Part shown: positions 12,387-17,707 of the stretch, in pieces
How positions within the stretch are numbered: position 1 is the stretch's first letter
Layout: every line of letters starts with the position of its first letter
Source: Deferribacterales bacterium
GTDB taxonomy: Bacteria; Chrysiogenota; Deferribacteres; Deferribacterales; Geovibrionaceae
Assembly: GCA_050251945.1 (NCBI GenBank)
Contig: JBFWLW010000014.1
Coordinates: 1-63,406, forward strand
Direction of reading: 5' to 3'
DNA: 63,406 nt
Made by a program: the position numbers and the translations under genes
The notes under the pieces: generated by a model
What the model saw: only the letters and a program-made list of their open reading frames with translations
Database searches by the model: none
What the model was told of the DNA's origin: nothing

Positions 12387-12486
12387 ATTTGATTTTTTAA
12401 TGACATGCCGTATGGTTTCTGATATAAAAAATCTTCCGATACAGGTGCGTCCAAAATCTGAAATAAACATATAAAAGGTGTCTTTA

Positions 12487-12720
12487 ATGAAAGCAAAAGT
12501 GTATGTCAGGCTTAAGAACGGCGTTCTCGACCCTCAGGGACAGACGATCCAAAGCTCAATCGAAAGAATGGGTTATGAATTCGCGAAAGAGGTAAGGGTT
12601 GGCAAGGTCTTTGAAATAGAGGTTAAGGATGAATCCTGCCGCAAAGATCTTGAGAAGATAGCCTCCACAATGCTTGCAAACATGATCATCGAAGAATATT
12701 CCATAGAGTTTGAGGCGTAA
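12487..12720 (+). CDS. purS: FGAM synthase subunit PurS
   Basis: GVLDPQG, VRVGK, LANMIIEEY; first gene of the pur cluster. Confidence 0.93.
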   Translation: MKAKVYVRLKNGVLDPQGQTIQSSIERMGYEFAKEVRVGKVFEIEVKDESCRKDLEKIASTMLANMIIEEYSIEFEA

Positions 12721-12722
12721 GC

Positions 12723-13421
12723 ATGAAAGCCGGAGTAGTTGTTTTTCCGGGGTCCAACTGTGACCACGACTGCTATCACGTTTTAAAGCATGTCATTGGA
12801 GCCGAAACGGTTTTCCTGTGGCATAAGGACACCGACCTTCAGGGTGTTGACCTTGTGGTATTTCCCGGCGGGTTCTCATACGGAGACTACCTGCGCTGCG
12901 GAGCTATTGCGAAGTTTTCCCCCATCGTAAACGAGGTCATAAAATTCGCCGAAAACGGCGGGCACGTACTTGGTATCTGCAACGGATTTCAGGTGCTCAC
13001 TGAATCCGGTCTGCTCCCCGGCGCACTGATGCGCAACAAGGGGCTTAAATTCAAATGCGAATATCTGAACCTGCGCGTGGACAATTCCGACACTCCATAT
13101 ACAAATATGTATGCCGACGGAGAGGTTATCAGCATCCCGATAGCCCATGCCGACGGCAATTACTATATTGATGAAGAAGGTATGAAGGAGCTTGAGGAGA
13201 ACAATCAGATAGTTTTCCGCTATTGCGACGAGAACGGAACTGCGGAGGACGACAGCAACCCCAACGGTTCGCTGGGCAACATCGCCGGAATAATCAATAA
13301 AAAGGGCAACGTCCTTGGTATGATGCCTCACCCCGAAAGGTGTGCGGAGGGTGTTATGGAGACCCGCGACGGTTACTTCCTTTTTGAATCCATAGCGAAA
13401 TTCATCGGGGGCATAAAATGA
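12723..13421 (+). CDS. purQ: FGAM synthase glutaminase subunit PurQ
   Basis: [31 protein letters not shown]. Confidence 0.97.
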
Positions 13422-15649
13422 GCGTATACGAAAAATTCGGTTTCCCCGAGGTAACGGCGGAAGCGGCAAAGGGCATGGGTCTTTCCGCGTCCGAGTTTGA
13501 AGGTGTTAAGAAACTTCTGGGCAGAACGCCCAACTACATAGAGCTTGGTGTCATTTCATCAATGTATTCCGAGCATTGCAGCTATAAGTCAAGCCGCGTG
13601 CATCTTGCGAAATTCCCCACAACAGCCCCCTGGGTTGTTCAGGGTCCCGGCGAGAATGCCGGTATCATAGAGGTGGACAACGAAGGGCTGTGCGTATGCT
13701 TTAAGGTTGAATCCCACAATCACCCGTCATTCATCGAACCCTTTCAGGGTGCTGCCACAGGCGTCGGCGGTATCCTCCGCGACGTTTTCACGATGGGAGC
13801 AAGACCCGTGGCGGCGATGAACTCGCTTCGTTTCGGTAAGCTGGACAAACCGAAAAACCGTCAGATATTTGAAGGTGTCGTTGCAGGAATTTCCCATTAC
13901 GGCAACTGCTTCGGCGTTCCCACAGTCGGCGGCGAGGTTTACTTTAACAGTTGCTATGACGGCAACCCTCTCGTAAATGCGTTTGCTCTTGGCGTTGTAC
14001 AAAAAGAAAACATTTATCTTGCGAAGGCGGAAGGTCTCGGCAACCCCGTTATCTATGTCGGAGCGAAGACAGGCAGAGACGGTATCCACGGAGCCACAAT
14101 GGCATCCGAGGAGTTCAACGAAAACAGCGAGGCGAAACGCCCCAACGTACAGATAGGCGACCCTTTTAAAGAGAAACTTCTGCTTGAGGCATGCCTTGAG
14201 CTTATGAAAACCGACTACATCGTCGGTATACAGGATATGGGTGCGGCAGGACTGACCAGTTCGTCATTCGAGATGGCATCCAAATCAGGTTCAGGCGTAA
14301 GACTTGACCTTGATATGGTGCCTATGCGTGAAAAGGGCATGAATCCGTATGAGATAATGCTTTCCGAGTCACAGGAGCGTATGCTTATGGTGGCGAAGAA
14401 GGGTTATGAGGATAAGGTAAAGGCTATATTTGAAAAATGGGATCTGGACGCGGTTGTCATCGGAGAGGTGACAGACGACGGATATGTAAGGCTGTTCTGG
14501 GACGGCGAAGAGGTTGCGGCTCTTGAGGCGGCGCCACTTGCAGACGAAGCGCCGAAGTACAACAGACCTTATGCCAGAGGCGAATACATGGACGAGCTTC
14601 AGCGTCTTCCCAAGGTGGAATCGCCTGAGAACCTTCAAAAGGTTCTTGAAGACCTGCTCGCAAACGAAACAATAGCTTCAAAATGCTGGGTGTGGAACCA
14701 GTACGACCATATGGTTCGTGTGGGTACAGTACAGCTCCCCGGTTCCGATGCGGCTGTGATAAGGCTGAACGAATCCGAAAAGGGTATTGCCATATCAAGC
14801 GACTGCAACAGCAGATTCTGTCTGCTCAACCCTTATGAGGGCGGAAAAGCGGCGATTGCCGAATCAGCACGCAACGTAGCTGTGAGCGGCGCGCGTCCAA
14901 GAGCGTTCAGCAACTGCCTTAACTTCGGAAACCCCGAAAAACCTGATATCATGTGGCAGTTCGTGTCAGCAGTGGAAGGCATGGCGGAAGCGGCGAAAGT
15001 GCTTGAAACGCCTGCTATCAGCGGTAACGTATCCCTCTACAACGAAACTGAGGGCAAACCGATACATCCGACGCCGACTATTGTTATGGTGGGTGTATTC
15101 GACGACGTTACAAAACGTATCGGGTCATATTTCACAAGCATGGAGAGCGCTGTCTACCTTCTCGGCGAGAACACCGGATACATCGGCGGCAGTGAGTATC
15201 TAGCGGCTGTACACGGATACGAACGCGGTGACGCGCCATGTGTTGACCTTGAGCGCGAGAAGAACATAATCGACTTCATGTGTGCGGCGGCTGACAAAAG
15301 ACTTGTAAAGGCAGCCCACGACATTTCAGAGGGCGGTCTGGCGGTTGCTCTGTGCGAGATGTGTTTCGGCGGCGACAATGTGGGTGTGAATGTAAAGCTT
15401 GAAAGCGGCATAAGAAACGATGCGCTTCTGTTCGGTGAAAACCACGGACGCGTCATTCTGGAAATAGACGTTAACAACGCACAGGCGATAACAGCTCTTG
15501 CGGAAAAATATAATCTGCCTATATCGAAGATAGGGCGCACATGCAGCAGTCTCATCGAAATTTCCAACAAAACCCAAAAACTGGTCACGTTGAAAGTGTC
15601 TGAGGCTGAAAAAATCTGGAAAAACAGTATCGGAGACAGAATGAAATGA
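13418..15649 (+). CDS. purL: FGAM synthase subunit PurL
   Basis: [32 protein letters not shown]. Confidence 0.97.
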
Positions 15650-17016
15650 TTTTTGATAAATTTCACGAAGAATGCGGGGTTGCAGGGGTTTACGGAAATA
15701 AAGAGGCGGCGAATCTTGTTTATCTGTCGCTGTATTCACTCCAGCACAGGGGACAGGAGGGTGCCGGTATAGCCGTCACCGACCGCAAACATATATCCTA
15801 TGAAAAAGGTATGGGGCTTGTGGCTGATATTTTCAGTCAGGAGAAGCTGGACAAGCTTCAGGGAGATGTTGCCATCGGGCATAACAGATATTCCACATCG
15901 GGAGTATCCGCTCTGGCTAACACCCAGCCCATAACCGTTACGATAAACTTCGGCGAAATATCTCTTGCTCACAACGGAAATATTGTGAACGCAGACGAGA
16001 TAAAGGACGGACTTGTGGCGAGGGGTGCGATATTCGGCTCCACGTCGGATTCAGAGGTTATTGTCCACCTCATCGCCAAATGCGGCAAAGATAATCTTAT
16101 TGATGCCATAACCGATTCTCTGCGCAAGCTTAAGGGCGCTTTTTCACTGCTTATCATGACAAACGACAAGATGATAGGCGTTCGAGACGCTATGGGCATG
16201 CGTCCGCTGGTTTTGGGTAAACTGAAAAACAGCGGATATATACTCGCTTCAGAGACTGTCGCACTCGACCTCATCGAAGCCAGCTTTGTCCGCGAGATAG
16301 AGCCGGGCGAAATGGTCATTGTCGACGATGACGGAATAAAATCCATCTTTCCGTTTGAGAAGACAACACCGAAACCCTGCATATTTGAGCATATATACTT
16401 TGCACGTCCAGATTCATACCTGTTCGGTCGCAACGTATACGAAGTGCGCAAAAAATTCGGCAGATGGCTTGCAAACGAAACACCGGTTGAAGCGGATGTG
16501 GTAATCCCCGTTCCGGATTCAGGTGTTGTTGCAACACTGGGCTATTCAGAAGCCAGCGGCATACCGTTTGAAATGGGACTTATGCGTAACCACTACGTCG
16601 GCAGGACGTTCATAGAACCCAGCCAGTCCATCAGACACTTCGGTGTTAAGATAAAACTGAACCCCGTAAGGGAAGTTATAGAAGGAAAAAGGGTTGTGGT
16701 TGTTGACGACTCCATCGTAAGGGGTACCACAAGCCGTAAGATTGTTAAAATGCTCCGCGAGGCAGGTGCTAAAGAGGTGCATATGCGCATCAGCTCACCC
16801 CCCACGATGTTTCCCTGCTTCTATGGCATAGATACTCCCACCAGAAAGGAACTGATAGCCTCTACCCACACGATAGAGGAGACCAGAAAATACATAACCG
16901 CTGACAGTCTCGGGTATTTAAGTCTTGAAGGACTGCTGGATTGTGTCGGCAGTACGAGTTACTGCCATGCGTGCTTCTCCGGTCAGTATCCGACGATCTA
17001 TAAGAAAGGTGAATAA
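15646..17016 (+). CDS. purF: Amidophosphoribosyltransferase
   Basis: EECG propeptide junction, [23 protein letters not shown]. Confidence 0.97.
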
Positions 17017-17028
17017 CGGAGTGATTTT

Positions 17029-17379
17029 ATGGAAGAGATGATCGTTATCCGTATGTTCGGCAGCAGCATGGAGTTTGTTTCAGGCTGAAGCCCATCGTAT
17101 TTTCCCACAGGTTGTGGGACACACGACGACCCCTACGAACAGCTTTCCTACAGGCTGGACGCGCTTCTGACACAGGAGTATGGACTCGGAAGGATTGATT
17201 TCAGGTATATCGACGTTTCATCGCCGGAGATACTTGATTATATCAGTGACATCGAAACCATTGTGGACGGAAGGCTCCCGCTGCCCTATGTTTCTCTGAA
17301 CAAAAAGCCCCTTTGCTGGGGACTTTCCGAAGCGGAGGACATTGTTACAAGGGTTAAGCTGAAATTGGATGAGAGTTAA
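17029..17379 (+). CDS. Candidate selenoprotein (116 aa, Sec at codon 20), probable thioredoxin-like fold; absent from the ORF track
   Basis: GGAG RBS, ATG 17029, single in-frame TGA 17086-17088, then 96 open codons to TAA 17377-17379; SECIS-like hairpin at 17103-17119. Confidence 0.68.
17103..17119 (+). promoter_or_regulatory. Putative bacterial SECIS hairpin
   Basis: TCCCACA-GGT-TGTGGGA; apical GGU 22-24 nt after the UGA. Confidence 0.6.
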
Positions 17380-17403
17380 TCAAGCCGCTCAACAGAGCGG
17401 CTT

Positions 17404-17563: not shown

Positions 17564-17707
17564 AAACCGCTCAACAGAGCGGCTTCTTTTATCTGCCGTT
17601 GATATGCTTCGCTCTGCTGCGTCGGTTTTTTCCCGCTCGCAACACACATCGTCATCAGCGGTTTTATTTTCCCTTGTTGCCAAAATCTTTATCATTTATA
17701 CTGACAT

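Follow-up and report, generated by a model that had tools for sequence, protein, structure and literature searches.

The closest described relatives of the protein examined here are small thioredoxin-like proteins. The YuzD/DUF1462 family (PF07315), represented by Staphylococcus aureus SA0798 (PDB 1XG8), provided the best structural and profile match and has the same small thioredoxin-like topology. The catalogued Trx, Grx, UXX-star 1 and 2, SaoT, Sec.1 and Sec.2 selenoproteins likewise adopt a small thioredoxin fold, with selenocysteine (Sec) placed after strand 1 and the selenocysteine insertion sequence (SECIS) inside the coding region, and the arsenic metallochaperone ArsD (PDB 3MWH), also of thioredoxin-like fold, gave a weak Foldseek match. 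The gene in question lies in the window, that is, the whole 63,406-nucleotide stretch of DNA that was analysed (contig JBFWLW010000014.1 of a Deferribacterales bacterium, assembly GCA_050251945.1). Located directly behind purF at 17029-17379 on the plus strand, it comprises 116 codons from an ATG at 17029 to a TAA at 17377-17379 and contains one in-frame TGA, which in all likelihood is decoded as Sec.

The protein differs from each of these systems. Its identity to YuzD/DUF1462 was 18-19%, its score of 12.4 bits fell under the PF07315 gathering cut-off of 25, and whereas SA0798 carries CxxC in a shorter loop, the purF-linked family has a longer loop with U-x8-C, the register between the two being uncertain. 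Unlike the catalogued thioredoxin-like selenoproteins, which carry UxxC, CxxU or UxxT, it has S-G-U-x8-C, and no Cys-form orthologue of it was found. In contrast to ArsD, no ars context was seen at the purF-linked loci.

The in-frame TGA codon and its conservation

The features of the gene are as follows.

17029..17379 (+), candidate selenoprotein gene, predicted thioredoxin-like, read-through product of 116 amino acids
17018..17021 (+), GGAG ribosome-binding site 7 nucleotides ahead of the ATG, recognised in the sequence
17086..17088 (+), TGA codon 20, likely Sec, the sole internal stop; TGA conserved and selA/B/C/D in the genome
17103..17119 (+), bacterial SECIS-type hairpin, 7-base-pair stem with a GGU loop 21 nucleotides past the UGA, -9.7 kcal/mol
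17113..17115 (+), codon of Cys29, candidate resolving cysteine, also within the 3' arm of the SECIS; TGY in 27/27 orthologues
17284..17286 (+), codon of Pro86, immediately ahead of strand 3, invariant in alignments of 20/20 and 14/14 sequences

The initial annotation had described a 12-nucleotide gap after the end of purF at 17016, the GGAG site, the ATG and a frame whose single internal stop is the TGA at 17086-17088; all these positions were verified, and the 116-residue read-through translation was reproduced. GGAG/GAGG-type sites were present upstream of the start in most orthologues. Under translation table 11, no open reading frame of at least 60 amino acids was listed at 17029-17379. 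The first in-frame start 3' of the TGA is codon 79 in this gene, and internal starts were not conserved, codons 21-79 being without any start in 4 of 30 loci. The databases mostly hold only fragments of the protein that follow the TGA, including the RefSeq records WP_132874537.1 and WP_231841010.1.

Of 41 related genomes, 26 carry the gene, and at the level of the phylum it was found in 27 of 68, spanning 7 genera with identities down to 43%; among named organisms, the genomes of Seleniivibrio are nearest, with protein identities of 93-98%. Seleniivibrio woodruffii and Denitrovibrio acetiphilus are carriers available in culture. Codon 20 was TGA in all 27 orthologous loci, as well as in locus L077 and five true metagenome loci. 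The ratio of nonsynonymous to synonymous polymorphism (pN/pS) was 0.32 for the codons ahead of the TGA, 0.33 for those of the loop and 0.36 for those past the TGA across 30 loci, a set, also used for the internal starts, from which L087 and L088 (homopolymer indels) and L089 (a duplicate) were left out. The conserved TGA, the similar pN/pS on its two sides and a synonymous constraint limited to the hairpin exceed chance, unlike the hairpin alone. The initial annotation had regarded its reading as dependent on the TGA and hairpin being kept in relatives, and both are kept across the 7 genera. Of the states of codon 20 that it had named for homologues, the DNA loci all show TGA and none Trp, Arg or Gly; no Cys form was encountered, and two protein records have Trp. 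Separately, contigs C7 and C16 of genome G005 carry purF and the gene in duplicate, the proteins having 92% and 95% identity to the present one, perhaps reflecting a mixed bin.

The genome (99.97% complete) was shown to contain selA, selB, tRNA-Sec and a selD interrupted by an in-frame TGA, all of them above their curated cut-offs, so that the selA/selB/selC/selD set, the lack of which the initial annotation had held to be decisive, is present. TGA is the stop of 975 of the 2553 called genes, and the only tRNA with a TCA anticodon is tRNA-Sec; a Trp reading of TGA is therefore excluded in this genome. Codon 20 is very probably read by Sec-tRNA via SelB bound to the adjacent hairpin.

The distribution of the gene followed that of the Sec machinery. 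Of the 41 related genomes, 25 had both selA and the gene, and 13 had neither of the two. The gene without selA was seen only in G035 (87% complete), which carries a Sec-type selD, and selA without the gene in G020 and G031, the latter assembly also being without purF. The selD gene bears TGA wherever it was found (29/29) and thus in all 26 carriers, and the 12 genomes that have no selD also have no copy of the gene. In genus g3, which belongs to the same family and is represented by assemblies 99-100% complete, selA, selB, selD and the gene were all missing in 4/4 genomes, and no gene remnant was observed behind purF in the three g3 genomes inspected. These observations indicate that the gene disappeared along with the machinery and did not change into a Cys form.

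The SECIS-type hairpin

The hairpin proposed in the initial annotation, TCCCACA-GGT-TGTGGGA at +15 to +31 after the UGA, was found at 17103-17119. In comparison with the published bacterial SECIS consensus model (PMC13188914), it agrees with the model in all four criteria, having a 3-nucleotide loop, GG-U, closed by A-U. On its own, the hairpin is weak evidence and common by chance. By a loose rule, a GG-loop hairpin accompanied 8157 of the 116432 all-frame TGAs of the genome (7%), and the z-score was -1.97 over 65 nucleotides and -2.77 over a 28-nucleotide stretch picked afterwards.

The alignments nevertheless argue that the hairpin is constrained at the RNA level. Third-position entropy was 0.21-0.84 bits at the four four-fold codons in the hairpin against 1.24-1.94 bits at the other 22, its four synonymous sites being the most constrained of the 26 in the gene (p ~0.001, for columns that are non-independent and share the same phylogeny). 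Among 26 sequences, pairing was retained in 93.4% of cells, versus 88.4% in shuffled alignments and 38-59% with slid partners, and two stem pairs varied on both sides. In addition, RNAalifold, unaided, recovered six of the seven stem pairs.

A paralogue was observed in genome G007 (L050:1438-1788, minus strand), which does not adjoin purF, has 27% identity and carries a C-x3-U motif, its Cys lying four residues ahead of the TGA. It displays S-G-TGA and, at equal spacing, a 7-base-pair stem with a 3-nucleotide loop of different sequence, the folding energy of which was no better than that of shuffles. Its RefSeq form is a 74-residue fragment, WP_162139896.1.

Predicted fold, proposed chemistry and competing explanations

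The protein is predicted to adopt a thioredoxin-like fold, nearest to SA0798 (YuzD/DUF1462). 1XG8 ranked first in both searches with the predicted model, strand 1 of which precedes the TGA; the resemblance to YuzD/DUF1462 suggested in the initial annotation is in good agreement with this distant homology, and its ArsD-like alternative found a fold match, albeit a weak one (E 0.027, rank 48). PF07315 was matched by 17 of 20 aligned members at an expectation value (E) of up to 1 (best, 1.3e-5), and its cut-off was reached in one of the 68 genomes, with 25.7 bits. Thioredoxin folds carry a cis-proline just before strand 3; Pro86, followed in the model by the strand 87-90, matches it by position and may be in the cis state.

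Apparently, these proteins constitute an uncatalogued selenoprotein family that is thioredoxin-fold and redoxin-like, related to DUF1462 yet outside it. Table 1 of a 2026 review (119 families; PMC13188914) has no DUF1462/YuzD-like entry, U-x8-C motif or pur-linked selenoprotein, catalogued families without a domain model having been compared by name and motif only. With NCBIfam 20.0, no match to this protein was obtained up to an E of 1, and members matched no better than E 0.13, single ones reaching UXX-star models at E 0.13-0.14 only. The available portions of the deep-Sep and BSepDB papers make no mention of Deferribacter, DUF1462 or YuzD, nor does that of PMC5029168 mention Deferribacter; the full-text literature, whose coverage leaves out most subscription papers, yielded no description.

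We consider that the protein is probably a thiol-disulfide reductase that works through a selenol, Cys29 being its resolving residue, an interpretation from sequence and model to which we assign a probability of roughly 60%. According to this mechanism, SelB would read the hairpin and Sec would be inserted at codon 20. In the model, strand 1 is joined to helix 1 by a long flexible loop, the place of CxxC in thioredoxins; Sec20 and Cys29 are predicted to lie in this loop, near the invariant Pro86. The selenolate of Sec20 would then attack a client protein at an oxidised cysteine, after which Cys29 would resolve the mixed bond; the selenoprotein would be recycled by a reductant of the cell, perhaps the membrane-anchored Sec peptide of matching distribution described below. 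That this peptide is a partner is possible, a conjecture from position and distribution.

The surroundings of the gene are as follows.

15646..17016 (+), purF, amidophosphoribosyltransferase, iron-sulphur (Fe-S) type; best PDB matches 6LBP and 1AO0
12478..15649 (+), purS, purQ and purL, named from their translations, without a family-library scan
17382..17403 (+), terminator-like hairpin directly past the stop, z -3.8, a consensus match only

In all 33 orthologous loci, some of which derive from the same strain, purF lies directly upstream, about -1 to 15 nucleotides away. The end of purL precedes purF in loci of two genera, and the downstream neighbours differ between genera. This spacing makes co-transcription with purF likely; the gene may merely share a housekeeping promoter with purF, and although a functional link to PurF is possible, adjacency is no proof of a role in purine synthesis. 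PurF here most resembles the enzymes of Arabidopsis and Bacillus and keeps the catalytic Cys10 together with cysteines 245, 391, 440 and 443, which, by analogy with the Bacillus enzyme, we take to be the Fe-S ligands. An extra residue, Cys433, was present in 33/33 carriers and in five of nine non-carriers (four g3 genomes and G020), being absent from the four distant non-carriers. PurF of g3 has 11-12 cysteines versus 6-9 in full-length carriers; within the aligned part it has gained three, at a rate that places it 10th among 97 orthologue pairs and within the ordinary range. The cysteines gained in g3 (L083-L085 and L146) lie at 383, 429 and the C-terminus in 4/4. With its catalytic cysteine and four Fe-S-type cysteines, PurF might be a client of the reductase, a doubtful conjecture that draws on position and distribution. 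As for the terminator-like hairpin, its core recurs at 17567-17582 with a further inverted repeat between, possibly a small repeated element.

Several observations weigh against the proposed reductase or its selenocysteine. No Cys at the Sec position was found among the orthologues or the database records searched, and the usual Sec/Cys comparison is inapplicable. Two full-length database proteins, P0006 and P0038, have Trp at the codon-20 site; both extend beyond the end of the family through another Trp, which suggests, at the level of the protein records, that a gene caller read TGA as Trp. One stem pair is broken by a pyrimidine mismatch in 10 of the 26 orthologues. Cys29 is confounded with the SECIS, since its conserved G-C-G lies within the stem and may be partly fixed by RNA, and its counterpart is missing from the L050 paralogue, which has no Cys downstream of the TGA. 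Residues 15-31, including U20 and C29, were modelled with Cys in place of Sec at a predicted local distance difference test score (pLDDT) below 50, and with the loop at such low confidence the model does not fix the active-site geometry. The carriers being kin, the distribution reflects roughly a single gain and a single loss and not 41 independent tests, and G020 has selA, selB and a Sec-type selD yet no match to the gene. Finally, genomes without the gene retain PurF with the same four Fe-S-type cysteines, and PurF therefore does not need the gene.

A role other than reduction would suit part of these data. A selenoprotein in which U20 and C29 serve, in the manner of ArsD, to bind or transport a metal or metalloid (selenium, arsenite or copper), possibly passed to or from the membrane Sec peptide, would fit the predicted placement of both reactive residues in the flexible N-terminal loop, the presence of ArsD among the fold matches, the similar G-U-x(4 or 6)-C spacing of the peptide, its occurrence in all 27 carrier genomes and the 18 molybdopterin oxidoreductase matches in the genome. 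However, ArsD ranks far under both 1XG8 and the thioredoxins, no constant ars or transporter neighbour was seen, the downstream genes vary, and the purF-linked protein and the membrane peptide have no profile similarity, so that we regard such a carrier as unlikely. Somewhat less probable again is a role of the selenoprotein in carrying, repairing or protecting an Fe-S cluster, PurF of the Fe-S type being the client to which it is dedicated. The constant adjacency to purF, the contrast in Cys433 between carriers and distant non-carriers, the genome's lack of a match to an A-type Fe-S carrier (PF01521) or glutaredoxin (PF00462) and a location of yuzD near nfu and sufA in Firmicutes would speak for it; Cys433 is nevertheless shared by five non-carriers, the cysteine gain of g3 PurF is unexceptional among orthologue pairs, and the literature consulted did not confirm the yuzD neighbourhood.

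The UGA and hairpin could instead form a selenium-dependent translational switch, the protein being a non-catalytic sensor or adaptor like the KaiB/SasA-type thioredoxin folds. This appears improbable, given that the gene is the last in its run with a terminator-like hairpin behind it and different downstream neighbours between genera, and that purifying selection runs along the whole protein. Least credible is a TGA that acts as a genuine stop, arose as a pseudogene lesion or encodes Trp in a different genetic code: the post-TGA database entries and the two Trp records would accord with it, but TGA is an ordinary stop here, the sole TCA-anticodon tRNA is tRNA-Sec, internal starts are not conserved, strand 1 precedes the TGA and the gene tracks the Sec machinery.

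A second candidate and the use of the Sec machinery

Formate-dehydrogenase-like genes of these bacteria rarely carry a TGA: with at most 21 candidates scored per genome, only 1 of 78 such matches in the 41 related genomes carried TGA, and none of the six above the cut-off did. The single TGA-bearing match is G015:C12:124288-126312. Two heuristic scans of the genome by coding score and hairpin, in which gene junctions were discarded by eye and recoded genes that are short, overlapping or with a TGA near either end may be missed, revealed three plausible recoded genes, namely selD, the purF-linked gene and the following.

G000:C8:88929-89102 = L119:2430-2603 (-), second uncatalogued selenoprotein candidate, 58 amino acids; relatives L121-L140

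The second candidate has a hydrophobic N-terminal stretch (a predicted membrane anchor), a G-U-x(4 or 6)-C-S-I-E-D-R-Y motif and a lysine-rich tail, and showed no NCBIfam or Pfam match. It was detected in 29 of the 68 genomes, always with an in-frame TGA, in the same 7 genera and in all 27 carriers of the purF-linked gene. Its 7-base-pair hairpin with a GGA loop is identical in sequence in 19 of the 20 loci shown, the remaining locus pairing by G-U. In this genome, the candidate overlaps the start of a kdsA-like gene. In G020 and G021, which show a selB match and a selD of the TGA type, both the purF-linked gene and the gene of the 58-residue peptide are missing. Elsewhere in the genome, a repeated intergenic element encoding nearly the same short peptide occurs at four sites on contigs C1, C2 and C3 of G000, likely a repetitive extragenic palindromic (REP)-like repeat.

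It is conceivable, as a tentative proposal, that Deferribacterales keep the Sec machinery for two tiny Sec-only proteins that form a selenium-based membrane-to-cytoplasm redox relay with clients such as Fe-S-type PurF, irreplaceable by Cys forms and lost with the machinery. The deep-Sep paper states as a limit of standard pipelines that they need homologues containing Cys. The present findings add one family, probably two, to the bacterial selenoproteome, of the type missed by pipelines with this requirement, and suggest why the order retains Sec machinery when TGA is all but absent from its formate-dehydrogenase-like genes. WP_132874537.1 and WP_231841010.1 are shown to be C-terminal fragments, DUF1462-like proteins gain a testable chemistry, and cultured carriers exist.
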